Translations under genes and position numbers: made by a program
Notes under the pieces: generated by a model
Database searches by the model: none
Told to the model about the DNA's origin: nothing
What the model saw: only the letters and a program-made list of their open reading frames with translations
Shown here: one piece after another, positions 6,381 to 64,000 of the stretch
Layout: every line of letters begins with the position of its first letter
Position numbering within the stretch: the stretch's first letter is position 1
NCBI GenBank assembly: GCA_023129325.1
Contig: JAGMCI010000014.1
Coordinates: forward strand, 2,123-66,122
Direction of reading: 5' to 3'
Length of the DNA stretch: 64,000 nt
DNA from: a candidate division WOR-3 bacterium
GTDB lineage: Bacteria > Hydrothermota > UBA3073 > JACQXS01 > JAGMCI01

Positions 6381-6938
6381 ATGAGTTCATTACTTACTCC
6401 CTATCTTCGTGAAAGACGAATCAATGTTATAAAGCCGTATCTAAAATTTAATATTTTAGACCTTGGATGTGGTTCGGCGTTGTTATCTACTTATTTAAAT
6501 AAAAATTATTCCTATACGGGTATTGAGTTAAATCGCGAATATGTTAAATGGCTCGAGAAAAAATATCCAATATATAAATTTTATCAATGTAATATTGAAG
6601 TTGATAAATTACCCAATTTTGGCAAAAAATTTGATACAATAACAATGATTGCTGTAATAGAACATTTAAAAAATCCAAGAAATATTTTTAAACAATGCCA
6701 TCATTTACTTAATGAAGAAGGAAATTTAATTATCACTACTCTCCTACCCATTGGTAATCAAATTCATAGAATAGGGGTTAACCTTGGACTGACAAGTAAA
6801 GATGCGGCAGAGAGACACTATTGCCTATATTCCTATCAAAAAATGAAAGAATTACTTCAGGAGGTAAAATTTAAAATAGTTGTATATGAAAAATTTGAAT
6901 TTAACTTGAATCAACTATTTATATGCAAAATACAATGA
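6381..6938 (+). CDS. Class I SAM-dependent methyltransferase
   Basis: ILDLGCGSA motif I and the AVIEHLKNP region. Confidence 0.8.
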   Translation: MSSLLTPYLRERRINVIKPYLKFNILDLGCGSALLSTYLNKNYSYTGIELNREYVKWLEKKYPIYKFYQCNIEVDKLPNFGKKFDTITMIAVIEHLKNPRNIFKQCHHLLNEEGNLIITTLLPIGNQIHRIGVNLGLTSKDAAERHYCLYSYQKMKELLQEVKFKIVVYEKFEFNLNQLFICKIQ

Positions 6939-8053
6939 AAATTTGGGTCTTAGGACCAACTTATCCATTTAGAGGTGGTATAGCTCATTATACAACCTTG
7001 CTTGTGAAAAGTTTAAGAGAAAAATATCAAGTTAAATTCATCTCTTTTAAACATCAATATCCTTCATTTTTATTCCCTGGTAAAAATCAACTTGACATAA
7101 GTAAAATACCCCTTAAAATAAAAAATGAACCAATTTTTAACCCATATAACCCAATGACTTGGTTTTACATAGTTACAAGAGCTAAAAAAAGTATACCCGA
7201 TATGTTCATTTTTAATTGGATTACTCCATTTTTTGCATTACAATTTTTAATTATTATATATCTATTAAAACAGTTCACAAAAATTAAGATTTTAATGATA
7301 TGCCATAATGTAAAAACTCATGAAAGAATGTTAGGAGAAAATATCCTTACGAAACTGACCTTTGGCAAGGTGGATTATTTCATTGTTCATTCGAAAAAGG
7401 GTTTAAAAGCTCTAAAGGAAATAAAGCCAAATGCATATATAAAAAAACATCCGCTTCCAATTTATGACTTTTTTAAATATAAAAATATTTCAAAAGATGA
7501 AGCTCAAAAGAAAATAAATGTTTCTGGAAAAGTTATTCTTTATTTTGGTTTTGTGCGAAAATATAAGGGATTAATATATCTTATTCAAGCTATGCCATTA
7601 GTGTTAAAAGAATATGATGTAAATCTTTTAATTGTAGGTGAATTTTGGGAAAATAAAGAAAACTATCTTAAAGAAATTAAAAAACTTAATATTATAAAAA
7701 AAGTGCAAATAATTGATAAATATATTCCAAATGAAGATGTTAATTTATACTTCTCATCAGCAGATGTTGTAGTTTTACCCTATATTTCTGCTACCCAAAG
7801 TGCTATAATTCAAATTGCTTATGGCTTTGATAAACCTGTAATAAGCACTAAAGTAGGAGGAATTCCGGAAGTTGTAAAAAATGGAATAGCTGGGTTTGTC
7901 GTTCCACCCGAAAACCCAAAAGCTTTAGCTCGTGCTATTATATCATTTTATAAAGATAACAAAGGGAAAGAATTTATAAAAAATATAAAAAAAGAAAAAA
8001 AGAAGTTTGAATGGAATAAGTTAGTAAACGCCATAGAAGAATTGGTAAAATGA
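6923..8053 (+). CDS. Glycosyltransferase, GT4-like (GT-B fold)
   Basis: C-terminal region LPYISATQSAIIQIAYGFDKPVISTKVGGIPEVV, a divergent EX7E-type block. Confidence 0.75.
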   Translation: MQNTMKIWVLGPTYPFRGGIAHYTTLLVKSLREKYQVKFISFKHQYPSFLFPGKNQLDISKIPLKIKNEPIFNPYNPMTWFYIVTRAKKSIPDMFIFNWITPFFALQFLIIIYLLKQFTKIKILMICHNVKTHERMLGENILTKLTFGKVDYFIVHSKKGLKALKEIKPNAYIKKHPLPIYDFFKYKNISKDEAQKKINVSGKVILYFGFVRKYKGLIYLIQAMPLVLKEYDVNLLIVGEFWENKENYLKEIKKLNIIKKVQIIDKYIPNEDVNLYFSSADVVVLPYISATQSAIIQIAYGFDKPVISTKVGGIPEVVKNGIAGFVVPPENPKALARAIISFYKDNKGKEFIKNIKKEKKKFEWNKLVNAIEELVK

Positions 8054-9249
8054 ATATTTTAATAATAACACCTAAATTTCCTTATCCTTTAGATGATGGA
8101 CACAAAATAAGATTATTTAATCTTATAAAACATACTTCTAAAAATCACCGTATTTCACTTATTTCACTTTGCGATTCTCCTGTAGGGGCGATTCATGAAT
8201 CGCCCCTACAAAAATACTGTGAAGTCATTGAACTTGTTAAAGTAAACAAATATAGTATGAAAAGATTTGTAAAACTTGCCCCGGCTTTATTCTCTAATAC
8301 TCCAATTTCAGCAAAATTCCTTTTCTTTCCCAAAATGGCAGAAAAAATTAAAAACTTGCTTCAAGTAAGGGCGAGGTCACCTCGCTCCTACTCTCTTGTT
8401 CAAATTGAGCATTCATATATGGGGCTTTATCTTGATGTCATTAAAGAGTTTAATGTTCGTAAAATACTTACTGTCCATAATCTTGAATTTTTAAGATTTC
8501 CAAGAATGTTTAAAGCATCAAGACCTGGTGGACGAAAACTTGCCTTTTTCATTGATTCAACAAGAATGTGTTACTGGGAACCAGAATTAGCCAAGAAATT
8601 TGACCACATAATTACGGTATCCGAGAGAGATAAAGAAACATTATCTGCCATAGAACCAGAATTAAATATATCAGTAATTCCAAATGGCGTATCTCTTGAA
8701 TATTTTTCTCCTTCAGTAATTCCGCCGGAACCTAATTCACTACTCTGGGTTGGTTCTTTACTTTATGAAGCAAATAAAGATGCAGTAATTTACTTTATAA
8801 ATTCAATTTTACCATTAATAAACAAAGAAATACCAGATGTAAAATTACACATAGTTGGAAAAATTACTCCTAAATTTGAAAATAAACTAAAGAAATACAA
8901 AAATGTAATAGTAGAAGGTTATGTATCTGATGTAAGACCTTATATTGAGCGATGTGAAGTTTTTATAGTTCCATTAAGAGCAGGTGGTGGCACAAGACTT
9001 AAAATCCTTGAAGCAATGGCTATGGAAAAACCTGTAGTTTCAACCTCTATTGGCTGTGAAGGCATAGATGTCGTCCATGGCAAAAACATTCTTATTGCAG
9101 ATACTACAAAAGATTTTGTCAAAGAGACTGTGCAACTTTTGCAAAACAAAGAAGTAAATGAAAAAATTAAAAAAAGTGCCCGAAAATCTGTTGAACAGAA
9201 ATATAATTGGAAAAAAATAGCCAAGCAATTAGGAACAATTTATTCATAA
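8050..9249 (+). CDS. Glycosyltransferase, GT4-like, carrying two in-frame palindromic insertions
   Basis: PLRAGGGTRLKILEAMAMEKPVVST block. The odd peptides SPVGAIHESPLQ and VRARSPRSYS are encoded by palindromes. Confidence 0.8.
   Translation: MNILIITPKFPYPLDDGHKIRLFNLIKHTSKNHRISLISLCDSPVGAIHESPLQKYCEVIELVKVNKYSMKRFVKLAPALFSNTPISAKFLFFPKMAEKIKNLLQVRARSPRSYSLVQIEHSYMGLYLDVIKEFNVRKILTVHNLEFLRFPRMFKASRPGGRKLAFFIDSTRMCYWEPELAKKFDHIITVSERDKETLSAIEPELNISVIPNGVSLEYFSPSVIPPEPNSLLWVGSLLYEANKDAVIYFINSILPLINKEIPDVKLHIVGKITPKFENKLKKYKNVIVEGYVSDVRPYIERCEVFIVPLRAGGGTRLKILEAMAMEKPVVSTSIGCEGIDVVHGKNILIADTTKDFVKETVQLLQNKEVNEKIKKSARKSVEQKYNWKKIAKQLGTIYS
8181..8210. repeat. Perfect 30-nt palindrome in frame within a CDS
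   Basis: TGTAGGGGCGATTCA/TGAATCGCCCCTACA. It is 10 codons long and encodes PVGAIHESPL. A degenerate relative lies at 8364-8392. Confidence 0.85.
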
Positions 9250-19827: not shown

Positions 19828-19928
19828 TGTTTAAAGAAAGTAAGATTTTTTAGTCAGACAAAAAAGAGATATTGTAATAACCATATAATTGAAGGCAACT
19901 TTTCATAAATCTACCATAAAAAAGTATA

Positions 19929-20083
19929 AACCACAGAGAGCACAGGAATAACAAAGAGAACACAGAGTAATTCAAATTCTTATATTAACAGGGATTTTAA
20001 GAGATTCATTTTTTATCTTTGTTTTCTTACCCAGCACATAATTTATGTGCTGGGTGGCTATTTTTCTCTGTGTCCTCCGTAGC
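19929..20083. repeat. CACAGAG-type inverted element enclosing a hairpin
   Basis: AACCACAGAGAGCACAGG..AACACAGAG (19929-19967) faces CTCTGTGTCCTCCGTAGC (20066-20083). An 11-bp-stem hairpin lies at 20030-20054. Confidence 0.6.
20030..20054 (+). terminator. Possible intrinsic terminator
   Basis: CCCAGCACATA ATT TATGTGCTGGG followed by TGGCTATTTTT. It lies downstream of the GT4 gene that ends at 19827. Confidence 0.45.
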
Positions 20084-20902: not shown

Positions 20903-20956
20903 AAGATAGGGTACAGGGGGTAGCGTATAGGGTGTAGAGAATGATGTGGAGGAACG

Positions 20957-21310
20957 ATGAAAAGTTATAAAGAATTGATAGCATATCAAAAAGGGTATCA
21001 ATTGTGTCTGAAAGTTTATAAGACAACAACAAATTACCCAAAGCAAGAGATTTATGGATTGGTATCGCAGATGCGAAGAGCGGCGGTATCCATACCCTCA
21101 AATATAGCTGAGGGATATAGGAGAAAAACACGAAAAGCATATACCCAATTTCTTAGAATTGCTTTGGGTTCATGTAGCGAATTAGAAACTCAGATTTCAT
21201 TATCTAAGGATTTGGGATTTATAGGGGCTAAGGATTACAGGGTACTATATGAGTTACAAGTTGAAGTTACCAAGTTATTAATTAAATTAATAGCTTCTTT
21301 AGAAAAATGA
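20957..21310 (+). CDS. Four-helix-bundle protein (23S rRNA intervening-sequence protein / Avd-like family)
   Basis: YQKGYQLCLKVYKTTTNYPKQEIYGLVSQMRRAAVSIPSNIAEGY...FLRIALGSCSELETQ is the family signature. Confidence 0.85.
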   Translation: MKSYKELIAYQKGYQLCLKVYKTTTNYPKQEIYGLVSQMRRAAVSIPSNIAEGYRRKTRKAYTQFLRIALGSCSELETQISLSKDLGFIGAKDYRVLYELQVEVTKLLIKLIASLEK

Positions 21311-21385
21311 CCCTACACCCGGAATTTATCCCGCACCAAGCGGAACCCTACACCCTGCACCCTTTACCCTATACCCTGATGTATT

Positions 21386-22633
21386 ATGGCAGTAATTGAA
21401 TTTAATCACATCTGGAAGAAATTCAAGAAAGGCGGAGGGGGTGCATCGCTCAGAGACCTCATAAGTAATATGATTTCCCGCCTACACCCGGAATTTATCC
21501 CGCATCAAGCGGGACCCTACACCCTACACCCTGATTCTATCTTCTGGGCATTAAAGGATGTATCATTTGAAGTAAATGAAGGCGAGGCGCTTGGTATAAT
21601 AGGACCAAATGGAGCTGGGAAGACAACAATCTTAAAACTTTTATCAGGCATAATGAGACCAACTAAAGGGAATATAAATATAAAAGGCAAATTATCAAGC
21701 TTAATTGAGTTAGGAGCTGGCTTTCATCCGGAGCTAACTGGAAGAGAAAACATATACTTAAATGGCCAAATTTTAGGGATGCACAGAGATGAAATAAAAC
21801 GCAAATTTGATTCAATAGTAGATTTTTCAGGCATAGAAGAATTCCTTGATATGCCAGTAAAGAGGTATTCCTCGGGAATGTATGTCCGTCTCGGCTTTGC
21901 CATAGCAATTCATGTAGATTTTGATGTCCTATTAGTAGACGAAGTCTTAGCCGTAGGCGACATCAATTTTCAAAAGAAATGCTTTACTAAAATGGGGGAA
22001 TTTCGGGAAAAAGGAATGACAATTGTACTAATCTCCCATTCTATGTCAAATATTTCAAGAACATGTAACCGAGCTATATTTTTAGACCGTGGAAAAGCTG
22101 AATTTAAAGGCGTTTCCGACAAAGCAATAGAGGCTTATTATAATAGTATAGATAAAAAGGCACAAGATATTATATCTACAAAGATATATAAAGTGGGAAC
22201 TGGAGAAGTTTCTATAAGTAATGTGAAAGTATTTCAAGAAAATAATAATATAAAAAGTAATGAAATTGAGTTTGGAAAAAATATTGTTATAGAAGCAAAT
22301 TATAAAATAAATAGTGAAAATATTCCTGACGATATTGAATTTAGGGTAGGAATATTAACTCTTGAAGGTTATGACTTTATGAAGTTAATTCATAGAGAAT
22401 ATAAACCCTCTCGAAATGGTCAGGTACAATTTATAATAAAATCTCCAAAATTATTTCCACGAACTTACAAAATAAATATAGCAGCCTGTCCTTTAGATAT
22501 GGATTATCATATGGGAGGCATTGGTAATGCAGCTACATTCACTATAAAAAAACCTGATAATAAAAAAATTAGTAAATTTGAATATGGGAATACATATTTA
22601 GTTTACTTTGACTATGAAAGTAAAGCTTTATGA
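21386..22633 (+). CDS. wzt: Polysaccharide ABC exporter ATPase with extra C-terminal domain
   Basis: Walker A GPNGAGKTT, signature YSSGMYVRLGF, Walker B VLLVDEVLAVGD, and about 150 further C-terminal residues. It carries the in-frame insertion LHPEFIPHQAGPYTLHP. Confidence 0.85.
   Translation: MAVIEFNHIWKKFKKGGGGASLRDLISNMISRLHPEFIPHQAGPYTLHPDSIFWALKDVSFEVNEGEALGIIGPNGAGKTTILKLLSGIMRPTKGNINIKGKLSSLIELGAGFHPELTGRENIYLNGQILGMHRDEIKRKFDSIVDFSGIEEFLDMPVKRYSSGMYVRLGFAIAIHVDFDVLLVDEVLAVGDINFQKKCFTKMGEFREKGMTIVLISHSMSNISRTCNRAIFLDRGKAEFKGVSDKAIEAYYNSIDKKAQDIISTKIYKVGTGEVSISNVKVFQENNNIKSNEIEFGKNIVIEANYKINSENIPDDIEFRVGILTLEGYDFMKLIHREYKPSRNGQVQFIIKSPKLFPRTYKINIAACPLDMDYHMGGIGNAATFTIKKPDNKKISKFEYGNTYLVYFDYESKAL
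21479..21535. repeat. Hairpin-plus-heptamer module in frame in wzt
   Basis: CTACACCCGGAATTTATCCCGCATCAAGCGGGACCCTACACCCTACACCCT. Related copies are at 21310-21379 (intergenic) and 34028-34080 (in a CDS). Confidence 0.8.
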
Positions 22634-26921: not shown

Positions 26922-28166
26922 ATGAGAATTTTAGTTATCTCTAATTTTTATCCTCCTCATCATTTTGGAGGGTATGAACTACGGTGTAAAGACATCGTTA
27001 GCAATTTGCAGAAAAAAGGTCATAAGACTGTCATTCTTACCAGCATTTATAGAGTTCATAAGACTCAAGTAAAAAATAATATCTATAGAGCGCTTTCTTA
27101 TCAGCTTAAATATTTTAATAAAACATCCCTCAAGAATACCATTATTAAAGAATTAAGGGACATCCACACTTTAAAGAGTCTGATTAACTGGTGGAGACCT
27201 GATTTAATTTATATTTTTAATATGGGATGTTTAAGTAAATCATTATTAAGAACCATATCTTCGTGTAAATTACCCGTTGTTTATGACATTTCTGATTCCT
27301 GGCTTATCAAGAACTGGATTTGTGATAATTGGTTAATTTACTGGCAGTCCTCTTCTGATTTAGCGTTTATTCGGTTTCTCAAATTGAAATTTTTGGGATT
27401 AATTACAAAAAAATATATTAAGAAATATTCTAAATATATACTCCCAATAGATTCCCTTACTTTAAATTTGAAATATGTCTATTTTACTAGCAATTTTCTC
27501 AAGACTGTATATTTTAGAGGTGGTTTTCATGTAGGAAAAGCACCCATAATCCCTTGTGGTATCCCAATGAGTTTAATAGCCCTGAGAGGAGAGAAAAGAA
27601 GTCCGCTAAAATTACTGTATGTGGGAAACATACAAAGAGATAAAGGTATTCATACTGCAATTGAAGCAATCTCAATATTGACGAAGAAAACTCCTATTCA
27701 TAGCTTGAGCATCATTGGTGGTATTGTAGATATAGAATATACAGAAGAGTTAAAAGTTAAGAGAGAAGTAGAAAATTTACCAGTAATGTTTATTGGTCAA
27801 TTCCCACGTGATAAAGTATTGGGTATTTATAAAAAACATGACATTTTGATATTTCCTTCTATTTGTGAAGAGTCGTTTTCTCTTGTCATTCTTGAAGCAA
27901 TGGCAAGTGGATTAGCTGTTATATCCACTGCTACAGGAGGTAATAAGGAGTTTTTAAAAGATGGTAAAAATTGCCTCATATTCCGTCCCGGTGATGCTAA
28001 TGACCTTGCCTCAAAAATAGAAATCCTTATCAAAAATCCTGACTTACGGAAGAGACTCGGAAACAATGCATCTAAATTTGTAAGAAAAAACTTTGATATT
28101 GAAAAAATAGTGGATAAAATAGAGGAATATCTGAAATGGGTGGTGGAAGATTTTAAAAATGCCTAA
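26922..28166 (+). CDS. Glycosyltransferase, GT4
   Basis: FPSICEESFSLVILEAMASGLAVISTATGG block. Confidence 0.85.
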   Translation: MRILVISNFYPPHHFGGYELRCKDIVSNLQKKGHKTVILTSIYRVHKTQVKNNIYRALSYQLKYFNKTSLKNTIIKELRDIHTLKSLINWWRPDLIYIFNMGCLSKSLLRTISSCKLPVVYDISDSWLIKNWICDNWLIYWQSSSDLAFIRFLKLKFLGLITKKYIKKYSKYILPIDSLTLNLKYVYFTSNFLKTVYFRGGFHVGKAPIIPCGIPMSLIALRGEKRSPLKLLYVGNIQRDKGIHTAIEAISILTKKTPIHSLSIIGGIVDIEYTEELKVKREVENLPVMFIGQFPRDKVLGIYKKHDILIFPSICEESFSLVILEAMASGLAVISTATGGNKEFLKDGKNCLIFRPGDANDLASKIEILIKNPDLRKRLGNNASKFVRKNFDIEKIVDKIEEYLKWVVEDFKNA

Positions 28167-28790
28167 ATACCTAAATGCCTAAAAGAAAGAATATTTGCTG
28201 AAAGACCAAAGACATAAGACTAAAGACTCAAGACTAAAGGAGATAAACCTGAAATTCTGTGGCTTGAATTTAAATTCTTGACTCTTTAAACCGCAGACTT
28301 GTCCCGATACGGAACGGGTCGGGAGGACATAGAGATAAAATCAATAATATTAACCGCAAATGGACGCAGATAGCCACAGATTAAACAAAGAAAAACTTTA
28401 TCACTGAAATACGGAATGACTGGAACACGGAGAATTCTTTAATTCACAAAAAGATTGTAACTCAAGGCTTTAGCCTTGATATCAACCCTAAAGAGTTAAG
28501 TTACAAATCTACCTGTCAGCAGACAGTTTTCTGTGTTCCCTTCTTTTTCCCGTGCTTTCGCGATAAAAAAATCTTTTGACTTGACAAAATACTTTTTAAT
28601 GATTATATTATAAAAAAGAAACTTTTTAGCTACAAAGGACACGGATGACAAAAAAATCTCAAAATTCAAATCGCAAATTTCAAACAAGCATCAATGTTCA
28701 AAATTCTAATGCCTAAAACTGTTTTGATTTTGGGATTTTGGATTTGTTTGGGATTTGGTACTTTGGATTTGGGATTTCCCTGTATCTGTG
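28158..28790. repeat. About 600 bp of non-coding mosaic made of heptamer arrays and hairpins
   Basis: Arrays include CCTAAAT (28158-28186), NAAGACN x5 (28201-28242), AAATNNC (about 28645-28680) and its inverse GGGATTT/TGGATTT (about 28722-28785). Hairpins include TCCCGA..TCGGGA (28302-28324). Confidence 0.7.
28581..28609 (+). promoter_or_regulatory. Sigma-70-like promoter
   Basis: TTGACA, a 17-nt spacer, then TATATT, about 200 nt upstream of the beta-propeller gene. Confidence 0.4.
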
Positions 28791-28808: not shown

Positions 28809-30308
28809 ATGTATAAATTATTTTTTATGTTATGTTTCTTGCTTCCCATTTCTCACTTTTCACTTCTCACTTCTTCTTTCGCCGCCACCTGGGAAAAGAC
28901 TTTTGGAGGGACAGGTCAGGATGAGGGATGGTCTGTTGAGCAAACCACAGATGGTGGATTTATTATAGCTGGAATGACATCCTCATTTGGAGCAGGTGAA
29001 AGCGATGTATATTTGATAAAATTAGACAGTCTTGGTAATGAGGTATGGATGAAGACTTTTGGTGGAGACAGTGCAGATGAGGGACGATGTGTTAAACAAA
29101 CTCAAGATAGCGGATTTATCATAACCGGATATACAAAATCATACGGAGCAGGTGATAAGGATATATGGCTTATAAAAACAAAGAGTTCTGGTGATACCAG
29201 TTGGACAAAAACTTTTGGAAGTAATAAACCAGATGAGGGATGGTCTGTTGAGCAAACGACAGATGGTGGATTTATTGTAGCTGGAGCAACGCATTCATGG
29301 GGAGCAAAAGAGAGTGATGTGGTTCTGATAAAAACAAATAGTCTCGGTAACGATGTTTGGGGGGAAATTTTTGGGGGAGCCGATGATGATGAAGGACGCT
29401 GCGTTAGGCAAACGGCAGATAGTGGATTTATTGTAGTTGGGTATACAAAATCTTATGGGAGTGGGGATAAAAATGTATGGCTCATAAAAACAAAGAGTTC
29501 TGGCGATACCAGTTGGACAAGAATTTTTGGAGGAGGAAACCCGGATGAAGGAATGTCTGTTGAGCAAACGACAGACGGTGGATTTATTGTAGCTGGATAT
29601 ACAGAGTCGTATGGAGCAAGTGACAGGAATATATGGCTTATAAAAACAGATAATTCTGGCAATCCTGATTGGGATGAAACCCTTGGAGGAGAAGCCCCGG
29701 ATGAAGGAATGTCTGTTGAGCAAATCGCAGATGGTGGATTTATTGTAGCTGGAGCAACGCATTCATGGGGAGCAAAAGAGAGTGATGTGGTTCTGATAAA
29801 AACAAATAGTCTCGGTAACGATGTTTGGGGGGAAATTTTTGGGGGAGTTGATGATGATGAAGGACGCTGCGTTAGGCAAACGGCAGACGGTGGATTTATT
29901 ATAGTTGGGTATACAAAATCCTGTGGAGCAGGTTCCTCTGGTGTATATGTTATAAAAACAGATTCCCTTGGCAATGTTGGGGTTGAAGAAGCAATTTCTC
30001 AGTTACCAACTTATTATAGTTTATCCCAGAACTCACCAAATCCATTTAACAAAACTACAGTGATAAGCTTTCAGTGCCCAGTGACCAGTGGAAAAGAAAG
30101 AACCACCTTGAAGATTTATAACTTGAGTGGAAGACTGATTAAGACCTTATTCGATAAGACACTAACCACTAACCACTTGCCACTGACTACTACTGTCTCC
30201 TGGGATGGCAGAAATGAATCTGGCAAATTAGTAGCTAATGGAGTTTATTTTTATAAGCTAAATAGCACAAATTTCGCATCCACGAGAAAACTCATCGTCT
30301 TAAAATAG
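28809..30308 (+). CDS. Secreted seven-repeat (beta-propeller-type) protein with T9SS C-terminal sorting domain
   Basis: Start moved to the ATG at 28809, after AAGGGGGG. Signal peptide ends SSFA. Seven repeats of about 48 aa follow the pattern W.KTFGG...DEG.SV.QT.DGGFI..G.T.S.GAG..D..LIKT. The tail is PNPFNKTT...GVYFYKL...KLIVLK. Confidence 0.8.
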   Translation: MYKLFFMLCFLLPISHFSLLTSSFAATWEKTFGGTGQDEGWSVEQTTDGGFIIAGMTSSFGAGESDVYLIKLDSLGNEVWMKTFGGDSADEGRCVKQTQDSGFIITGYTKSYGAGDKDIWLIKTKSSGDTSWTKTFGSNKPDEGWSVEQTTDGGFIVAGATHSWGAKESDVVLIKTNSLGNDVWGEIFGGADDDEGRCVRQTADSGFIVVGYTKSYGSGDKNVWLIKTKSSGDTSWTRIFGGGNPDEGMSVEQTTDGGFIVAGYTESYGASDRNIWLIKTDNSGNPDWDETLGGEAPDEGMSVEQIADGGFIVAGATHSWGAKESDVVLIKTNSLGNDVWGEIFGGVDDDEGRCVRQTADGGFIIVGYTKSCGAGSSGVYVIKTDSLGNVGVEEAISQLPTYYSLSQNSPNPFNKTTVISFQCPVTSGKERTTLKIYNLSGRLIKTLFDKTLTTNHLPLTTTVSWDGRNESGKLVANGVYFYKLNSTNFASTRKLIVLK

Positions 30309-30492
30309 CTCAACAGTTATTAACCATTGATTATTATTTGGGTAATTCGTGGTTAAGTAAAAAAACGTTTTAACCACAGACTTATAAATATAAAAACATG
30401 AATCACTCTATGTTCCTTTTGTCACCTCTGTGCTCTCTGTGGTTTACGCTTTTATCCGTCTAATCTGTGCAATCCGTGGTTGCAGATTTTTC

Positions 30493-33642: not shown

Positions 33643-33648
33643 TTCTAA

Positions 33649-33806
33649 AACCACAGAGAACACAGATTTGAATAAGATAAATAATCCCGCACTTATGTGT
33701 AAGTGCGGGACTGTGTAAATCTATTTTATCTGTGAGAATCTGCGTGCTAATGTTTTTGAATTTTGAAAATGGAATTTGTTTGGGATTTGGTCCGTCAGCT
33801 AACGGA
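33649..33806. repeat. Intergenic mosaic: CACAGAG inverted element, 11-bp-stem hairpin, TTTTGAA-type arrays, TCCGT hairpin
   Basis: AACCACAGAGAACACAGAT (33649-33667). Hairpin TCCCGCACTTA TGTG TAAGTGCGGGA (33685-33710). CTGTGTA..TCTGTGA..TCTGCGT (33711-33750). TCCGTCAGCTAACGGA (33791-33806). Confidence 0.7.
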
Positions 33807-33833: not shown

Positions 33834-34211
33834 ATGTGGGTTAATATTCGTGATTCAAGGATTGTTAAGAAGATAGAAGATGGATTCAAGAAAAGGAAGG
33901 AACTGTATAAAAAACTAAAAGTAAAAGCTCTGGATATAAAATACTCTACAACTCCTATTAAAAACAAAAAATTACTTTATAACTTATATCTTCTTAAAAA
34001 AAGACTATATCAGATAGATATGGTTTTCCCCTTTACCCTGCGCCCGGAATTTATCCCGCACCAGGCGGGACCCTGCACCTTTTTTTTAAACAAGCTTTGT
34101 AGAAAAATTGGAAAATTCTTATTAAAAGATTACATTGACAAACAAAAGAATTTTAACGAAGCAGTAATTGAGGCAATTGAAGAATTGACAAGAGAAATAA
34201 ATGAGGGTTGA
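33834..34211 (+). CDS. Hypothetical protein carrying an in-frame hairpin module
   Basis: ORF track. It overlaps the next GT4 gene by 11 nt. The peptide TLRPEFIPHQAGPCTFF is encoded by the module at 34028-34080. Confidence 0.45.
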   Translation: MWVNIRDSRIVKKIEDGFKKRKELYKKLKVKALDIKYSTTPIKNKKLLYNLYLLKKRLYQIDMVFPFTLRPEFIPHQAGPCTFFLNKLCRKIGKFLLKDYIDKQKNFNEAVIEAIEELTREINEG

Positions 34212-35298: not shown

Positions 35299-35320
35299 TT
35301 CTCAAAGAATTTGTGTAAGA

Positions 35321-35470
35321 ATAGGAAAAATGGAAAAAGTGGGGAAAAGGGAAAGAAAGATATAAAGATATAAAGAGATAATTGTATAATCTTTATATTT
35401 TCAAAGAAGTTAAAAGGCATTTCCCATTTTCCCATCCGCCTGAGGCGGATTCCCCTTTTCCCTTATTTAC
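35321..35470. repeat. MITE-like imperfect palindrome built from GGAAAAN arrays, with an internal hairpin
   Basis: The left arm is AGGAAAAATGGAAAAAGTGGGGAAAAGGGAAAG...ATATAAAGAT. The right arm is ATCTTTATAT...CATTTCCCATTTTCCC [ATCCGCCTGAGGCGGAT] TCCCCTTTTCCCTT. Confidence 0.6.
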
Positions 35471-41429: not shown

Positions 41430-41460
41430 GCGGCAACCCCGATTTTATCGGGGTTGCCGC
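41430..41460. repeat. Perfect 14-bp-stem GC-rich hairpin
   Basis: GCGGCAACCCCGAT TTT ATCGGGGTTGCCGC, flanked by GATTT-type heptamer arrays (41383-41400 and 41505-41550). Confidence 0.75.
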
Positions 41461-41558
41461 AATGCAAAACCACCGATAGTAAGGCTGGAAGCCTCACCTG
41501 TTATGGTTTAGGATTTTGTATTTAGGATTTGTTTGAGATTTATGATTTGAAATATAAT

Positions 41559-44823: not shown

Positions 44824-45783
44824 ATGAGTAAGCCAATTATTAGCATCGTAATACCGACCTATAACAGGAGAAAATATCTTAACAGCATTCTCAATTCTTT
44901 AAACGAAATGGAATTTAAAAAAGAAGATTATGAGATTATTGTGGTAGATGATGGTTCTACTGATGGAACAGAACAGATAATTGTAAATTGTAATCCGCCT
45001 GAGGCGGAGCAAATTGCAAATTTAAGGTATTTTAGGCAAGAGCATAAAGGGGCATCTGCTGCCAGGAACTTGGGAATAAAAAGTGCAAAAGGAGAAATAA
45101 TTGCATTTACAGATTCTGATTGTATAGCAGATAAAAATTGGTTAAAAGAAATAGTAAAATCGTTATGTTCAGGGATTAAGGAGTCTCAGCTAGAGGCTGA
45201 TGAGTCTCAGGCTCAAAGGAGTCAAGGAATCCAAGGTTCTTTCAATAATAAAGAGGCAATAGCAGTTGGGGGGAGAACGACAAGTATTTCAGAAAAAATT
45301 ACTCCTTTTACCCATCAGGTAATAACAGATGGAAAAACTTTCACGAGTTGCAATATGGCAGTGAGAAAGGAAATTTTATTAAAGATGGGTGGATTTGATG
45401 AAGATTTTATTTATGGGCACGAGGATACAGACATTTATTTCAGGCTACAAAAATTGGGTAAAATTATCTATAATCCAAGTGCTATTGTTTGCCATCCACC
45501 AATACCACTAAGTTTTTTGCAATTTATAAGAAGAATAGAAATAAGTTACAGGAATGAAAAACTGCTTTATAAAAAATATCCTGAACTATATGAAAGGAGA
45601 AGCTTTATTTCTGCAATCATCCGAGTTATTGGGATAAGGGCTTTCATTTTACAATTAAATGAGTGGAGTGGATATTTTTTAAAGAATCCATTTAAATATC
45701 TCTTATTCTTGCTTGGACTTTTACTGCAGAGAGTCTATCTTAGCAAATTAATTATAAACAATAAAGAATCGAAAGGATGTTAA
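44824..45783 (+). CDS. Glycosyltransferase, GT2, with two in-frame repeat insertions
   Basis: ISIVIPTYNRRKYL...YEIIVVDDGSTDGT and FTDSDC motifs. Confidence 0.85.
   Translation: MSKPIISIVIPTYNRRKYLNSILNSLNEMEFKKEDYEIIVVDDGSTDGTEQIIVNCNPPEAEQIANLRYFRQEHKGASAARNLGIKSAKGEIIAFTDSDCIADKNWLKEIVKSLCSGIKESQLEADESQAQRSQGIQGSFNNKEAIAVGGRTTSISEKITPFTHQVITDGKTFTSCNMAVRKEILLKMGGFDEDFIYGHEDTDIYFRLQKLGKIIYNPSAIVCHPPIPLSFLQFIRRIEISYRNEKLLYKKYPELYERRSFISAIIRVIGIRAFILQLNEWSGYFLKNPFKYLLFLLGLLLQRVYLSKLIINNKESKGC
44979..45022. repeat. Hairpin module in frame
   Basis: AATTGTA AATTGTA A TCCGCCTGAGGCGGA GCAAATT GCAAATT, encoding VNCNPPEAEQIAN. The same hairpin is intergenic at 35434-35450. Confidence 0.85.
45174..45238. 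repeat. Repeat module in frame
   Basis: GGAGTCTCAGC TAGAG GCTGATGAGTCTCAGGCTCAAAGGAGTCAAGGAATCCAAGG, encoding IKESQLEADESQAQRSQGIQGS. It shares GGAGTCAA units with 39928-39951. Confidence 0.75.
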
Positions 45784-51461: not shown

Positions 51462-52639
51462 AGATTTGTATAGTATCACATAATTTTCCTCCTACTATAT
51501 GTGGGGTAGGAGATTACAGTTATTGGCTTGCGAATGAACTTGAGAATTTGGGTAATAATGTGAGTGTAATTACATCTAAAATTGGGTCATCGGGTTATCG
51601 GGTCATTGAGTCATCGAATCAGGTAAAGATATTTCCTATAATTGAAAAATGGGATGTATTTCATATCTTTAAAATAATCGGCATTTTGAAATGCATAAAG
51701 CCCAATATTATAATAATCCAATATGTATCTCAATTATATGGAAGGGCAGGTATTGCACCAGGAATTATATTTTTTCTAACGCTTATAAAATTGTTCAATG
51801 TTTCACACATTCAAATAATCACCACTTTACACGAACTTTATCTCCCCTGGGGCTCAAAGGATTTTATATTAGGAGCAATTCAAAGGCTTCAAGCTTTTAT
51901 CCTTGTTTTAATCTCAGATGCAGCCATTGTTACCACTAAGTCAAGAAAGAAAATACTTAATTCCCTCTTCCCTTGGAAAAGAGTATATAAAATCTCTGTA
52001 GGGTCTAATATACCAATGGGAAGTAGGAAGCGGGAAGTGAGAAGTAGGAATCACAAAGATGATAGGCTAATTTTGGGTACTTTTGGAACTCTTCATCCGG
52101 AAAGGGACTTATTAACAGTTCTTAAATCTCTCTCTATGATTCAAGTAGGGGCGTATTGCTATACGCCCCTACTTCAAATTATAGGGGAAATAGATAAAGA
52201 CTCAGAAAATTACCGCATTTTAAGAATTACAGCGAAAAAACTTGGAATAGAAGAAAGGATACGCTGGATGTCAAACATTTCTAATCAAGAAATAGCTAAT
52301 TGTTTGGCGAATTCTGATATTTATTTATCACCAGAACTTGATGGTGCTTCAGGAAGGAGGACAACTTTAATGGCTGCCCTTTCACTTGGGCTCCCAATAA
52401 TTGCTTATAATGGAAGGGAAACGGAGTCTGTATTTAAGAATTATGAAAACATAATCCTTATTCCTCCTCATAATTCTAAAATACTGACTGAAAAGATAAT
52501 GGAACTTATCAAGAATAAAAAGCTTCGGGATTCTTTGGGTAAAAAAGCAAAGGAAACTTTTAATACTTATTTTAGCTGGGATATTATAGGTAAAGAATAT
52601 GAAAAGATTTTCAAAACTATCTATCATACAACGAATTAA
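51458..52639 (+). CDS. Glycosyltransferase, GT4-like, with two in-frame repeat insertions
   Basis: GT-B layout, with GRRTTLMAALSLGLPIIAYNG as the C-terminal block. Confidence 0.7.
   Translation: MKICIVSHNFPPTICGVGDYSYWLANELENLGNNVSVITSKIGSSGYRVIESSNQVKIFPIIEKWDVFHIFKIIGILKCIKPNIIIIQYVSQLYGRAGIAPGIIFFLTLIKLFNVSHIQIITTLHELYLPWGSKDFILGAIQRLQAFILVLISDAAIVTTKSRKKILNSLFPWKRVYKISVGSNIPMGSRKREVRSRNHKDDRLILGTFGTLHPERDLLTVLKSLSMIQVGAYCYTPLLQIIGEIDKDSENYRILRITAKKLGIEERIRWMSNISNQEIANCLANSDIYLSPELDGASGRRTTLMAALSLGLPIIAYNGRETESVFKNYENIILIPPHNSKILTEKIMELIKNKKLRDSLGKKAKETFNTYFSWDIIGKEYEKIFKTIYHTTN
52018..52051. repeat. Heptamer array in frame
   Basis: GGAAGTA GGAAGCG GGAAGTG AGAAGTA GGAATCA, encoding GSRKREVRSRNH. 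Confidence 0.85.
52144..52173. repeat. Palindromic hairpin in frame
   Basis: AGTAGGGGCGTAT TGCT ATACGCCCCTACT, encoding VGAYCYTPLL. Confidence 0.85.
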
Positions 52640-58676: not shown

Positions 58677-59966
58677 ATGAATATTTTAATAGCTGGTAAT
58701 GCTGACCTACCTCCCCCTTATGGAGGAATGGCAAGAAGAATTTCAAATAATGTTCGTGAATGGGAAAAATCTCATTTTGTTTCTATATTAACTTTTGGCA
58801 GAAAACCAAATCCCGGCTTAAAACATACAAAATTTTATAGTCTATATCCTGTAATTCACGAGTCTTTAAGAAAAATAGATTTCCTTAAAGGATTTATTAT
58901 TGCAAGTCAGAAAAGTGTAATACTTCTATTTTATTACTCATCGCTCTATAAGATAATAAAAAGGACTTTTGAATTGGTGCCGAGGGATTATAAATACGAG
59001 TTACTTCATTATCTTGGCTATGCTTGCAAATTATTGAAAATCATCAACAAGGACAAAATAGATATTATAGAGGCACAATGTGCATTTAAATATAGTCTTA
59101 TAGCTGAATTAGTAGGGGAATTTTCAGGTATCCCTGTCGTTATTTCTTCTTATGCTGAAGCAATATATTGGGAAGACAGAAAGGGTAAAGATTTAAGCAA
59201 ACGATACGATACGCTTTATAAATTGGTATATAATAAGGCCAAGAAAGTAATTTCTGCAAGTAAACATTGTGCTAAAGGACCTTTAAAATATATTTCTAAG
59301 AATAAGGTGGAAGTGGTTTACTCAAGCATTGACACACATCAATTTGATTCTTATTTTGATAAAGAGAAAGAAATCAAAAAAGAACTTGGTTATATTGATA
59401 ATAAAATTGTTTTATTTGTTGGACAGCTTTACTTAAGAAAAGGGCCTCAATACCTTGCAAAAGCATCAAGTGATATCATATCTCAATTTCCCAAGGTTAA
59501 AATTATATTTGTTGGCGAAGACTTTGGTGCAAAGAAAACAATTGTAGGAGCAATCCGTCGGCTGACGGATGAATTGCCCCTACATTCAAATAATATAATT
59601 TTCACAGGAAGGATAGATGATGAATATTTAAGGAAACTGTATGTTATTTCAGATGTTTTTGTCTTTCCAAGCATAACTGAAAATGAGTGCATGGGTATGT
59701 CAGCAAAAGAAGCGCTATCGGCAGGTGTCTCCGTAGTGGCATTTAAGATTGGCGGAATACCTGAAGCTGTGATAAATGGAAAAACAGGTTATCTTGTACC
59801 ACCAAGAGATGAGAAAAAGTTAGCTCAAAGTATTGTAAATTGCTTAATGCAAAATACAAAAGCAAAAATGAGAAATGAATGTCGTAAAAGAGCAAAAGAA
59901 TTATTTGATATAAAGGTCTCTGCTCAAAAGGAACTTCAAATATTAAAAAAGGTGAGAGGATTGTGA
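58677..59966 (+). CDS. Glycosyltransferase, GT4, with one in-frame hairpin insertion
   Basis: FPSITENECMGMSAKEALSAGVSVVAFKIGGIPEAV block. Confidence 0.8.
   Translation: MNILIAGNADLPPPYGGMARRISNNVREWEKSHFVSILTFGRKPNPGLKHTKFYSLYPVIHESLRKIDFLKGFIIASQKSVILLFYYSSLYKIIKRTFELVPRDYKYELLHYLGYACKLLKIINKDKIDIIEAQCAFKYSLIAELVGEFSGIPVVISSYAEAIYWEDRKGKDLSKRYDTLYKLVYNKAKKVISASKHCAKGPLKYISKNKVEVVYSSIDTHQFDSYFDKEKEIKKELGYIDNKIVLFVGQLYLRKGPQYLAKASSDIISQFPKVKIIFVGEDFGAKKTIVGAIRRLTDELPLHSNNIIFTGRIDDEYLRKLYVISDVFVFPSITENECMGMSAKEALSAGVSVVAFKIGGIPEAVINGKTGYLVPPRDEKKLAQSIVNCLMQNTKAKMRNECRKRAKELFDIKVSAQKELQILKKVRGL
59543..59584. repeat. Nested hairpin in frame
   Basis: TGTAGGAGCAA TCCGTCGGCTGACGGA TGAA TTGCCCCTACA. 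It is 14 codons long and encodes VGAIRRLTDELPLH. Confidence 0.85.
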
Positions 59967-60032
59967 AAGGTGAAATGTTAAATGTGAAAGGCGAAAACAT
60001 AAAACATTTAACAATTTTAATATTTTACTAAT

Positions 60033-61202
60033 ATGCGTATAGCCATAGTAGCTCATAATATTGTTAAGGAGGGAGACGGACAAGGAAAAGCAAATTATAA
60101 ACTTGCTCAATGGTTAATAGAACAAGGGCATAAAGTTTACTTATACGTCAATAAGGTAGAACCAAGTTTGAAAGGTACCGCAATTATCCATAGGATAAGA
60201 GTCCCTAAAAGACCTTTGATTTTGAAGATTCCTCTATTTTTAATTTTTGCAACTTTAAAGCTTCTTTACAAGAAATACAACATAATTCATATAAATAGTG
60301 GCACTTATTTTGGACATTACAATTTTTTGACTTGTCACTTTTGTCATACAGCATTTTTGAGTTATGAAACTGGTATTTACCATAAAGTTTACACATTATT
60401 CAATTCATGGATTGAGAGATTGATTTTCAAGAGAAGCGGTAAGATAATAACAGTATCATATCGTTTAAAAAAAGAACTAATAAATCTCTTAGGTGTTTTA
60501 CCTGAGAGAATTTTGGTCATGCCAAATGGAGTAGATACGAATAAGTTTAAACCACTCCGTGGTAAAAGTCGTGGTGAACCGCAGGTTAGAAAATTTAAAG
60601 ATAGATGCCAGTCGCGTTTTAAGGCAACTGAGGAGTCGCCGAAGGTAACCAAGGGCGAGCTTATCTTGCCAACTATAAAACTTCTTTTTATAGGTGAAAA
60701 TTCAATAAGGAAAGGATTGGATTTTTTAATTAAAGCAATGCAAGGAATAGATAAAGACATAACACTCCTAATAGCAGGTAGAAAAAAACATAAATATGAA
60801 AAGTTAGCAAAAGGACTGCAAGTAAAATTCTTAGACTTTTGTAAAAATAATGCTGAGTTGTACCATAATGCAGACATTTTTATACTTCCTTCTCTCTATG
60901 ACCCATTTGGAATTGTAGTATTAGAGGCAATGGCATCAGGTATTCCTGTGCTTGTATCTGAGTTAGCTGGAGTAAGTGAATTAATTCAAGACGGGGAAAA
61001 TGGTATACTAATAAATAATCCGAGAAACATAGATGAATTAAGAAGTAAAATACTCCTTCTCGCAAAAGATGAAGAGCTACGGAGTAGACTCAGCATTAAA
61101 GGAATAAAAACAGCAAACAGATATACCTGGTCTAAAATATTGGACCAGAAAGGAAACTTGTATTATGAAAGTCTTAATAGTAAGTCATTCGTGCATTATT
61201 GA
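60033..61202 (+). CDS. Glycosyltransferase, GT4, with a repeat-derived linker segment
   Basis: LPSLYDPFGIVVLEAMASGIPVLVSELAG block. Confidence 0.85.
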   Translation: MRIAIVAHNIVKEGDGQGKANYKLAQWLIEQGHKVYLYVNKVEPSLKGTAIIHRIRVPKRPLILKIPLFLIFATLKLLYKKYNIIHINSGTYFGHYNFLTCHFCHTAFLSYETGIYHKVYTLFNSWIERLIFKRSGKIITVSYRLKKELINLLGVLPERILVMPNGVDTNKFKPLRGKSRGEPQVRKFKDRCQSRFKATEESPKVTKGELILPTIKLLFIGENSIRKGLDFLIKAMQGIDKDITLLIAGRKKHKYEKLAKGLQVKFLDFCKNNAELYHNADIFILPSLYDPFGIVVLEAMASGIPVLVSELAGVSELIQDGENGILINNPRNIDELRSKILLLAKDEELRSRLSIKGIKTANRYTWSKILDQKGNLYYESLNSKSFVHY

Positions 61203-63016: not shown

Positions 63017-63728
63017 AATTATATTTCTAATTTCATTGTTATTGGAAGTTTTTACTATAATCAATGTAGAAAAAGATAATAGATTATTTGATACCATTGT
63101 GAGAGAAACAACTCTTAATAAAAAAGAAAAAGAGAAAATATTAGCCCTTTTCAACTGGACTCATATAAATGTAAAAATCAGAAATGGCTTACCACCTTTT
63201 GATTGGTTTATAACACCAAGAAGTGTATTGACTCATGGTTCAAATTGTGGCGGTTTCTCAAAGGTTTTTGCTGTTCTTTTAAGAAGAGACGGCTTCCCTG
63301 CAAGATTACTTTTCCTTTACCAGAATAAAATTCCAGTCCATGTGGTCACTGAAGTATATCATAAAAAGAGATGGGTTGTGTTTGACCCTTTCTATGGATA
63401 TTATTATCCAATGAACGATACACTTCTTGCTACTGCAGAAGATTTAAAAAGAAACCCAAATTTACTTCAAAAGTTTGTAAATAGAACTAAATACCCTATA
63501 AATTTTTATACCTATCAAGATGTAAGAAGAACAAACTGGACAAAAATTCCTATTATTTCGTCTAAAGTATATAAATTAATTAGAATAATCATAGGAGAAA
63601 AAGTAGATAAGATTGCTTTAAATGTGATTACCTTAAGAATAAAAATTCTTCTTACATATTGTCTCTTAATTCCAATAGTTATTTGTGGTTTCTTTATTGT
63701 TAAGTCAAACTTAAGAAAATCCAAATAA
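62994..63728 (+). CDS. Membrane-anchored transglutaminase-like cysteine protease-fold protein
   Basis: N- and C-terminal TM segments. Candidate Cys-His-Asp triad in GSNCGGFSKVF, HVVTEVY and VVFDP. Confidence 0.65.
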   Translation: MKRVIVCKIIFLISLLLEVFTIINVEKDNRLFDTIVRETTLNKKEKEKILALFNWTHINVKIRNGLPPFDWFITPRSVLTHGSNCGGFSKVFAVLLRRDGFPARLLFLYQNKIPVHVVTEVYHKKRWVVFDPFYGYYYPMNDTLLATAEDLKRNPNLLQKFVNRTKYPINFYTYQDVRRTNWTKIPIISSKVYKLIRIIIGEKVDKIALNVITLRIKILLTYCLLIPIVICGFFIVKSNLRKSK

Positions 63729-64000
63729 TGATTAATCACATTTTCAAGGAAAACGGTCTTATTGCCAAAAAGATGCCTGATTATGAGGAAAGGCAAGAGC
63801 AAATACTTATGGCTCAAGCTATAGATAACATTATAAAGCAGAAAAAGCCTGTCTGCCGACAAGTCAGGCACCTTATTTGTGAAGCCGGAACTGGGGTAGG
63901 CAAATCGCTTGCTTATCTTGTTCCTTTTATACTCTGGGCTAAAAATAACAAAAAGAAAATAATAGTTTCCACTTACACAAAAACACTCCAACATCAGCTA
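63728..64000 (+). CDS. DinG/Rad3-type ATP-dependent DNA helicase, N-terminal part (runs off the window)
   Basis: My own translation from the ATG at 63728 (TAATG overlap) gives MINHIFKENGLIAKKMPDYEERQEQILMAQAI...CEAGTGVGKSLAYLVP...VSTYTKTLQHQL. The ORF is not in the supplied track because it is open-ended. Confidence 0.75.
   Translation, partial: MINHIFKENGLIAKKMPDYEERQEQILMAQAIDNIIKQKKPVCRQVRHLICEAGTGVGKSLAYLVPFILWAKNNKKKIIVSTYTKTLQHQL

Follow-up and report, generated by a model that had tools for sequence, protein, structure and literature searches.

Tandem repeats whose unit is not a multiple of three are normally kept out of genes, and small palindromic repeats are mainly extragenic. Can both kinds nevertheless accumulate inside working enzymes, and by what route? 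A stretch of 64,000 nucleotides from a candidate division WOR-3 metagenome-assembled genome (MAG; GCA_023129325.1, contig JAGMCI010000014.1; NCBI proteins MCK43524xx, locus tag KAW65_), hereafter the window, raises this question. Here, short arrays of 7-, 8- and 14-nt units and short GC-rich hairpins, together called modules, interrupt the genes of a glycan-biosynthesis cluster. An earlier note, written from the letters of the window, had listed at least 25 in-frame modules in 14 genes. The modules are real, and we counted at least 30 in frame within 12 solid genes; the two remaining cases, open reading frame (ORF) 33834 and the start of DinG, are doubtful. We consider it probable that these modules are lineage-specific selfish DNA-level micro-repeats of two kinds, which have proliferated in this WOR-3 genome and have been filtered by selection in genes.

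We read about 74 kb of this one genome, comprising the window, 6.5 kb upstream and 3.2 kb downstream. The window has a GC content of about 32%. Between 6381 and 63728, almost all genes lie on the plus strand and form one very large glycan-biosynthesis cluster of about 50 genes. It encodes about 20 GT4/GT1-type and five GT2 glycosyltransferases (GTs), many methyltransferases, two DegT aminotransferases, two polysaccharide deacetylases and Wzm/Wzt, together with a flippase, a radical S-adenosylmethionine enzyme and two type IX secretion system (T9SS) cargo proteins (a and b). The region is 95% coding (54.6 kb coding versus 2.9 kb intergenic). Genes are named below by family and start coordinate.

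Over-representation of tandem arrays and GC-rich hairpins

A mechanical period scan of the window returned 22 arrays of period 7, seven of period 8 and seven of period 14, concordant with Tandem Repeats Finder, and none of period 5, 6, 9–13 or 15. First-order Markov simulations of the window gave an expectation of 1.7 period-7 arrays (maximum 5) and 2.0 period-8 arrays. Period-7 arrays number 0.34 per kb in the window versus 0.05 per kb in unrelated genomes (764 kb). Perfect GC-rich hairpins with a stem of at least 7 bp come to about 20 distinct ones in the window, versus 1–4 (about 2) in shuffled sequence. The array tracts are short (3–5 units) and often imperfect.

The earlier note had also described about five fixed and two variable positions in each 7-nt unit. 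ACCCTNN and AAGACNN arrays fit this pattern (p ~0.08 each), which is not significant, and over all arrays we observed 40 variable positions versus 45 expected, indistinguishable from uniform substitution. A GC-content window scan did not separate the modules from ordinary coding DNA. No Rfam family matched the hairpins, and no known RNA family was found at module sites.

Dispersed families of units and hairpins

When units were compared in any rotation and on either strand, 32 arrays yielded eight identical pairs versus 1.07 expected (no more than 5 in any of 500 simulations). Identical copies of units, and of hairpins of 15–37 nt, recur at unrelated loci in both orientations, and the same families occupy genes and intergenic DNA, as had been proposed. 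The recurring unit types include ACCAATT, TCAGAAG, ACCCTNN and the CTTACTTCCC type. ACCAATT is shared by GT2 39539, cargo b and a tRNA spacer; deacetylase 56664 and aminotransferase 57451 have TCAGAAG in common; ACCCTNN occurs at five loci in both orientations; and the 14-mer of the deacetylase is present as its reverse complement in GT4 51458. Elsewhere, four contigs of IMG/VR, viral or proviral, hold ACCAATT arrays with 4 to 7 units; on one of them, which has a GC content of 54%, five different heptamer arrays lie within 11.5 kb. Most of these arrays are intergenic.

Hairpin A (CCGGAATTTATCCCGCAYCARGCGGGAC, 25–28 nt) has three copies (intergenic, in wzt and in ORF 33834), each inside ACCCTNN arrays, and hairpin B (TCCGCCTGAGGCGGA) has two (intergenic and in GT2 44824), which lie in two different array types. 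Hairpin C (GTAGGGGCG-10 nt-CGCCCCTAC) and its GTAG-tagged variants account for five copies in 64 kb, all in GT4 genes: full copies at 8181–8210 and 52143–52174, and variants at 37193, 59541 and 8362. The arms of hairpin C are conserved, and its centre is swapped for other sequence that still pairs; that pairing is kept despite the change of centre points to a constraint on, or a mechanism through, the hairpin form. Hairpin D (TCCGTCRGCTRACGGA) has three copies (intergenic, in the deacetylase and nested in the loop of a hairpin C copy). Further families are E, F and G, and a long GC hairpin is present in opposite orientations in the aminotransferase and cargo b. Composite (array-hairpin-array) and nested architectures are repeated at three loci, which bears out the array-hairpin-array build described earlier.

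A metagenome scan with the exact hairpin A sequence returned no matches. With its 17-mer core, a comparison against 596 Gb of genome contigs returned 119 matches listed, where about 70 are expected by chance. Most of these arose by chance or belong to permease genes, in which a 'GIYPA' motif is conserved; about 13 are hairpin-like, and the WOR-3 genome is not among the matches listed. A hairpin with the hairpin A core (CCGGAATTTATCCCGC-loop-GCGGG) stands in distant phyla at seven Bacteroidota, two Phycisphaerae-type and three further loci, where it is enclosed by an extra outer G/C stem; these loci are not notably heptamer-rich.

Two further observations concern hairpin A and the ACCCTNN arrays near wzt. 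Between wzm and wzt lies a PF05635 gene (23S rRNA intervening-sequence protein, bAvd-like) flanked by inverted ACCCTNN arrays, which pair as a long stem enclosing the gene (minimum free energy (MFE) z = -3.55), so that the whole resembles an intervening-sequence (IVS)-like cassette with heptamer arrays as its 'inverted repeats'. Two direct copies of the array-hairpin A-array composite (21309–21377 and 21477–21535) enclose the segment of wzt that runs from the ribosome-binding site through the start codon to codon 30, and recombination between them would remove the wzt start.

Modules lie in frame within genes

The positions, strand and content of the modules, and of the related elements between genes, are as follows.

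8151–8210 (+), GT4 8050–9249, module 1: 9-mer TATTTCACT in two copies, then hairpin C (TGTAGGGGCGATTCATGAATCGCCCCTACA, peptide VGAIHESPLQ)
8362–8395 (+), GT4 8050, module 2: GTAG-tagged palindrome in reverse orientation, GAGCGAGGT-c-ACCTCGCTC-CTAC; MFE -16.4
20903–21385 (+), cassette intervening between wzm and wzt: inverted ACCCTNN array 20905–20937, PF05635 gene 20957–21310, array-hairpin A-array 21309–21377
21477–21535 (+), composite in wzt, codons 31–50, in frame: ACCCTAC array, hairpin A (CCGGAATTTATCCCGCATCAAGCGGGAC, peptide PEFIPHQAGP), ACCCTAC array
28157–28777 (+), intergenic cluster: octamer AAATGCCT, heptamer AAGACNN, hairpin E-like element 28298–28334, AAATCGC/TTTGGGA arrays
28843–28874 (+), signal peptide of T9SS cargo a, partly encoded by a CTTCTCA array
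30072–30177 (+), C-terminal sorting domain of cargo a: CAGTGCC and AACCACT arrays; +4 amino acids (aa) versus cargo b
30563–30595 (+), signal peptide of cargo b, partly encoded by a TTACTGC/TTACTAC array
33088–33448 (+), sorting domain of cargo b: 111-aa composite between strands 1 and 2, in the order ATATCAG/AGGTCAG array, hairpin E, ACCAATT array, AGGGTAA array, GC hairpin of the aminotransferase family
33685–33806 (+), intergenic: hairpin F 33685–33710, then a TTTGGGA array with hairpin D (TCCGTCAGCTAACGGA)
34022–34084 (+), doubtful ORF 33834–34208: ACCCTNN array with hairpin A
35320–35462 (+), intergenic: octamer arrays with hairpin B (TCCGCCTGAGGCGGA)
37193–37216 (+), GT4 36562: GTAG-tagged palindrome GTAG-GCACGAATT-C-AATTCGTGC
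39775–40411 (+), GT2 39539, span of four clusters
39775–39806 (+), GT2 39539 cluster 1: AGTGCAA
39926–40010 (+), GT2 39539 cluster 2: AAGGAGTC, AGCTATCG and ACCAATT
40112–40180 (+), GT2 39539 cluster 3: AGAAGCA and TCCTCAA
40376–40411 (+), GT2 39539 cluster 4: ACTTCCC
41430–41530 (+), intergenic: hairpin G (14-bp stem) and a TTTAGGA array
44976–45025 (+), GT2 44824, module 1: AATTGTA array, hairpin B, AAATTGC array; +5 aa
45160–45240 (+), GT2 44824, module 2: AAGGAGTC unit (common to GT2 39539) and inverted repeats
51581–51616 (+), GT4 51458: octamer GGGTCATC in four copies; +5 to +9 aa
52018–52044 (+), GT4 51458: GGGAAGTAAGAAGC array, reverse complement of the deacetylase 14-mer; length-neutral
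52143–52174 (+), GT4 51458: hairpin C (AAGTAGGGGCGTATTGCTATACGCCCCTACTT), a 32-nt perfect palindrome; net +2 aa
57068–57103 (+), deacetylase 56664: TCAGAAG array of 4.7 units (SEVRSQK); +8 aa
57154–57200 (+), deacetylase 56664: 14-mer TCCCGCTTCTTACT in three copies; +7 aa
57395–57410 (+), deacetylase 56664: hairpin D (TCCGTCAGCTGACGGA); +4 aa
57937–57978 (+), DegT-type aminotransferase 57451: CAGAAGT array module; +14 aa
58462–58518 (+), aminotransferase 57451: long GC-rich imperfect hairpin, MFE -35.1; +13 to +15 aa; reverse-orientation relative of 33395–33430
59541–59585 (+), GT4 58677: hairpin C variant whose loop holds a nested hairpin D; length-neutral
59960–60003 (+), 3′ end of GT4 58677: GTGAAAG array across the stop codon into intergenic DNA
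60560–60660 (+), GT4 60033: insert of about 25 aa between the two domains, in their linker; repeat character weak (12-nt direct repeat)
63846–63870 (+), near the DinG start: possible small imperfect hairpin, weak

Per gene, we counted two modules in GT4 8050, one composite in wzt, three in cargo a and at least five in cargo b; one in GT4 36562, seven arrays in four clusters in GT2 39539 and two in GT2 44824; and three each in GT4 51458 (where two had been reported) and the deacetylase, two in the aminotransferase and one, nested, in GT4 58677. The insert in GT4 60033 is real, yet not clearly array or hairpin. ORF 33834–34208 had no Pfam or family match and may not be a gene. Cargo a also contains, at 28895–29930, five to six copies of a 156-nt (52-aa) native protein-domain repeat unrelated to the modules.

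Every intragenic module preserves the reading frame and is free of in-frame stops, in agreement with the earlier note. We place the modules in frame within real genes (12 genes) because family homology runs in one and the same frame before and after every module, as observed for the aminotransferase, the deacetylase, GT2 39539, GT4 51458, GT2 44824 and cargo b. The modules are missing from the nearest homologs of the affected enzymes. About two-thirds of the modules are net insertions in low-confidence loops, and about one-third are length-neutral and overwrite native residues.

Against perosamine synthetase 3BN1, the SEVRSQK array module of the aminotransferase corresponds to a 14-aa gap and its GC hairpin to a gap of about 15 aa; the module-free aminotransferase paralog at 16090 has exactly the same 14-aa gap. 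Against homologs of 37–48% identity, the deacetylase gains 8 aa from the TCAGAAG array, 7 aa from the 14-mer array and 4 aa from hairpin D. In GT2 39539, columns of zero occupancy among 79 homologs (aa 84–85, 131–155, 195–212 and ~285–296) sum to its 57 extra residues, and two of the inserts add 25 and 18 aa. The 111-aa composite of cargo b, compared with cargo a, comes between the first and second strands of the C-terminal sorting domain; it appears to be held open by selection, because an AT-rich stretch of that length is improbable as open by chance. In both cargo proteins, the signal-peptide array lies between the hydrophobic core and the cleavage site. The N-terminus of Wzt is 18 aa longer than in solved Wzt structures. 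A PDB search with GT4 8050 gave no match at E ≤ 1e-10, and the PDB alignments of the deacetylase and Wzt end before the module positions.

AlphaFold models of two proteins were consistent with these alignments. The model of GT2 39539 (predicted local distance difference test (pLDDT) 84, predicted template modelling score 0.86) falls below pLDDT 50 exactly at 132–154 and 283–290 and to 58–72 at 190–220. The model of the deacetylase (pLDDT 88.7) dips at 131–150 and 241–250 and falls below 50 at 174–181, which are its three modules. Since the low-pLDDT stretches coincide with modules, the net insertions lie in loops left unstructured by the models.

The length-neutral modules behave differently. 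The AGTGCAA array of GT2 39539 adds only 2 aa in the alignment and lies in a high-confidence helix of the model; the GGGAAGTAAGAAGC array of GT4 51458 sits in fully populated alignment columns; and the nested hairpin of GT4 58677 stands in place of a helix of the same length. The proposal that the modules are inserted elements at surface loops, mapping exactly to alignment gaps, therefore needs qualification. Dispersed families and net inserts absent from homologs uphold it for about two-thirds of the modules, and low-pLDDT loops do so in two models. For the remaining third, comprising these three modules and hairpin C in GT4 51458, homologs carry residues at the same positions, so that pure insertion is partly refuted.

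Distribution in coding DNA, intergenic DNA and relatives

Among strictly scored arrays, 20 of 26 are in coding DNA, because the region is so largely coding. Array density is 5.6-fold higher in intergenic DNA (2.06 per kb versus 0.37 per kb). The units of 16 of the 20 intragenic arrays are free of stops in all three coding-strand frames, versus 5 among the 14 intergenic arrays (48% expected at random; Fisher p = 0.014). In the AGGGTAA array, substitutions take the in-frame TAA out. These stop-free and in-frame constraints speak for translation of the modules and against skipping of the kind seen with mitochondrial bypass elements. The flanking housekeeping DNA, about 16 kb, yielded no intragenic arrays; arrays there lie only between genes.

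Neither period-7 arrays nor intragenic GC hairpins were detected in 55 kb of the nearest relatives examined, which share 78% and 73% amino acid identity in the adjacent 2-hydroxyacid dehydrogenase and have partly conserved gene order. The closest homologs of deacetylase 56664 (41–48% identity) lie on two archaeal-looking contigs (S-layer protein, aRF1, archease, Hef), which hints at inter-domain gene transfer; these homologs are therefore uninformative on lineage restriction.

A copy-number difference between assemblies

The modules are present in three assemblies: the window, GCA_030643605.1 (99.92–99.99% identity over 31.7 kb) and Logan contigs of SRR13892596 (100% identity). The modules are therefore not assembly chimeras. 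Over the 31.7 kb, GCA_030643605.1 differs from the window by two single-nucleotide polymorphisms (SNPs; 7014 and 7260) and one indel, a 14-nt unit. The 14-mer TCCCGCTTCTTACT has two copies in GCA_030643605.1 versus three in the window, which shifts the frame of the deacetylase, called there as fragments of 185 and 82 aa. Because SNPs also differ, the two assemblies look like near-identical strains rather than one data set, and real loss or gain of a unit is more likely than an assembler slip. An exact-sequence look-up found no record for the intact deacetylase or aminotransferase.

De Bruijn assemblers are expected to break at perfect repeats and palindromes longer than the k-mer. The Logan contigs end exactly at such palindromes or arrays (8208, 40382, 52146/52174 and 57100), and because they break at arrays they give no third reading of the 14-mer copy number. 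Modules of this kind cause breaks in de Bruijn assemblies, and metagenomes may understate their number.

Proposed origin and alternative explanations

The selfish-repeat explanation favoured at the outset starts from what was observed: real modules in dispersed families, in frame and largely in loops, with an intergenic excess, a restricted lineage and one copy-number difference. One kind of element would be short GC-rich hairpins of 15–55 nt in at least six families, one of them a GTAG-tagged palindrome of the repetitive extragenic palindrome (REP) type; the other would be tandem arrays of 7-, 8- and 14-nt units from few unit families. Both would land anywhere, and the arrays may then expand or contract by replication slippage. 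Selection would purge most genic copies, leaving those that add up to a length divisible by three, that avoid an in-frame stop by virtue of their unit and orientation and that lie at a tolerant site, such as surface loops, interdomain linkers, signal peptides and the T9SS sorting-domain loop. Being frame-preserving and stop-free, the survivors would therefore be translated as additional loop residues. The length of an array unit is not divisible by three, so that gain or loss of a single unit alters the reading frame, which makes the arrays mutational switches as well. The hairpins are probably non-autonomous and depend for their copying on an enzyme encoded at another place in the genome; in the GTAG-tagged family this is possibly a REP-associated tyrosine transposase (RAYT) of the HUH type acting on single-stranded hairpins. 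Hairpins may prefer arrays for insertion, or hairpin-stalled replication may drive local duplication, and either would associate the two. The modules would be neutral or slightly harmful, not useful, and the frameshift-prone glycan cluster would be a by-product that may or may not be exploited.

Several points weigh against this explanation. We saw no target-site duplication or shared target sequence at hairpin junctions. The ~74 kb read encode neither a transposase, RAYTs included, nor a reverse transcriptase, which leaves the mover hypothetical. Genome-wide spread of the modules is an extrapolation from that sequence, and the single copy-number difference could be an assembler slip. The length-neutral third is not predicted by simple insertion and therefore needs later compensating deletion or replacement-type copying. 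Copying of the latter sort, in which cassettes are written over coding sequence of similar length by template switching or single-stranded DNA annealing at the replication fork, would account for both the length-neutral modules and the missing target duplications, and would seed arrays that make the whole glycan cluster combinatorially phase-variable in a candidate phylum that is free-living; we regard this version as quite unlikely. Concentration in glycan genes suits an adaptive switch role as well as tolerance. We think it unlikely that the arrays are mainly adaptive contingency loci, in which non-triplet slippage toggles glycan genes to give a combinatorial surface, for example against phages, as in NeuO, Haemophilus and Campylobacter. 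Such a role would fit arrays that lie in a surface-glycan cluster and are absent within flanking housekeeping genes, and a single 14-mer unit that toggles the deacetylase frame between strains otherwise two SNPs apart; in NeuO, too, a coding heptamer in a capsule-modifying enzyme is translated at a copy number divisible by three and switched by slippage. However, the tracts here have 3–5 units and are often imperfect, versus 3–53 units in NeuO, the same families are denser in intergenic DNA, the hairpin modules are unable to switch frame, and only a single variant was seen. Switching would also make little sense at several sites where these families are found: a tRNA spacer, the regions coding for signal peptides, and both flanks of the PF05635 gene in the IVS-like cassette.

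The remaining alternatives deny that the modules are copied between loci, translated or real. Local slippage of native heptamers together with quasi-palindrome correction could explain why several length-neutral modules resemble homolog residues (RKREVRSRN versus EKKKIRKKV in GT4 51458, PASYFPL versus PFLFYPS in the deacetylase) and why the AGTGCAA array forms part of a confident helix. Yet units and 15–37-nt hairpins recur at unrelated loci in both orientations far beyond chance, clean insertions of 14–111 aa are found in no homolog, and the build is nested and composite at three loci; the recurrence statistics largely refute such an in-place origin, which we judge very unlikely. GC-rich hairpin inserts in AT-rich genes resemble mitochondrial bypass elements, and modules might accordingly stay untranslated, through ribosomal skipping (as in Magnusiomyces mitochondria or T4 gene 60) or removal from RNA. 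This is highly improbable: skipped inserts need be neither in frame nor stop-free nor built of units biased to lack stops, as all intragenic modules are here, the two-copy 14-mer variant is annotated as a split gene, and module sites coincide with no known RNA family. An assembly artefact or chimera is barely credible. The Logan contigs do break at arrays and palindromes, and the two MAG assemblies do differ at one array, but such breaks are expected behaviour, three independent assemblies carry the modules with identical sequence, and the flanking genes are continuous in frame.

Other identities for the modules were tried and rejected: terminators (the intragenic copies lack T-runs and lie mid-gene), inteins and introns (the modules are far too small) and native protein repeats.

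Comparison with known repeats

Each kind of repeat found here is already known from other bacteria, and what is unusual is their density inside genes. Rickettsia palindromic elements (RPEs), which the earlier note had named as the nearest precedent, are an incomplete one; closer are intragenic GTAG-tagged REPs, heptanucleotide arrays and the AAGACTC repeat of NeuO. RPE-1 elements measure about 100–150 bp. Like the modules, RPEs are selfish DNA of palindromic form that functional proteins accommodate in frame, and they occur in non-coding DNA as well. They differ in that the modules are hairpins of 15–55 nt and tandem arrays, in that the phylum is another one, and in that arrays and array-hairpin composites are not known as an RPE feature. 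In-frame insertion of RPEs in ORFs is documented, as relayed in a later paper (Ogata et al, 2000, via PMC3733652).

Intragenic GTAG-tagged REPs, with in-gene cases in O. terrae, Thauera and R. conorii, are thought to be mobilised by RAYTs (Di Nocera et al, 2013, PMC3733652), as are REPs and their inverted doublets, REPINs (Bertels & Rainey, 2011, PMC3116915). Hairpin C and its variants are likewise palindromes of 20–32 nt that begin with GTAG and can form a stem-loop; they lie in frame in genes and encode about 10 aa, and their arms are conserved while their centres vary yet pair. In contrast to REPINs, the C-type copies are singletons. Only about five were seen in 64 kb, all in GT4 genes, two of them nearly length-neutral rather than net inserts, and no RAYT gene was found within the ~74 kb read. 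The GTAG tag is confined to the C type; the other lettered families (A, B, D, E, F and G) do not carry it.

Among the long simple sequence repeats of bacteria, those with a heptanucleotide unit form the most frequent class (Mrazek, 2007), and polymerase slippage has been proposed to generate them. TAACTGA repeats of Beggiatoaceae, Cyanobacteria and Bacteroidetes are mostly intergenic, and stop codons limit their orientation in genes (MacGregor, 2015, PMC4679880). The arrays of the window share with such repeats a lineage-restricted, patchy distribution, with one unit present in distant genomes ((ACCAATT)n in four IMG/VR contigs). Known arrays are overwhelmingly intergenic, whereas 20 of 26 lie in coding DNA here, although intergenic density is higher. 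Elhai and colleagues are said to have described, in 2008, cyanobacterial small dispersed repeats (SDRs) as 21–27-nt dispersed elements inside heptamer arrays (short tandemly repeated repetitive sequences, STRRs), with nested insertions. The window has features in common with these: many 7-nt array loci draw on few unit families, period 7 is over-represented, small hairpins are embedded in arrays (A in ACCCTNN at three loci, B in two array types), and D is nested in C. The differences are the WOR-3 host, the other units, and the octamer and 14-mer arrays beside the heptamers. We know of no settled mechanism for the spread of either the cyanobacterial heptamer repeats or the small dispersed repeats.

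In NeuO, switching is proven for one long 5′ tract of 3–53 AAGACTC units in the coding sequence of a capsule enzyme. The common features are a non-triplet 7-nt repeat in a surface-polysaccharide gene and a frame that shifts with one unit, of which one instance was found here; the window differs in its dozens of short internal tracts (3–5 units), mixed with hairpins and also intergenic. The 'byps' of Magnusiomyces mitochondria are frame-disrupting inserts skipped by the ribosome. They too are short GC-rich inserts scattered in the genes of an AT-rich genome, but the modules are all in frame and stop-free, implying translation. New here are the host phylum, the coding load, with 12 genes of a single cluster holding at least 30 modules, the length-neutral overwrites, and the way in which composite modules within enzymes combine arrays of 7-, 8- and 14-nt units with hairpins of several families.

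The locus thus offers natural experiments on how far GT-A/GT-B glycosyltransferases, a pyridoxal phosphate-dependent aminotransferase, a deacetylase and a T9SS sorting signal tolerate foreign loops, on how selection filters selfish DNA (stop-free units, allowed orientations, loop positions) and on how heptamer arrays and embedded tiny hairpins spread. The strain copy-number difference suggests that surface-glycan phase variation may operate in an uncultured environmental phylum. For annotation, VGAxxxSPLQ, PEFIPHQAGP, LPITNYQ and SEVRSQK in metagenomic proteins flag repeat DNA, not conserved motifs.

Other observations in the window

A short intergenic motif, AAACCACAGAGARCACAG, lies downstream of three genes (19927–19945, 30428–30446 and 33648–33668), in one case reversed. 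At 6021–6183 (+), one tRNA gene is nested in another. The inner gene is a complete tRNA-Gly(TCC) at 6061–6133. The outer tRNA was not called by the intron mode of ARAGORN or by Rfam; it could be a disrupted pseudogene or an unusual tRNA-containing intervening sequence. After excision of 6053–6142 (90 nt), ARAGORN calls a canonical tRNA-Trp(CCA), and a break at the usual 37/38 gives the anticodon UAC (Val).

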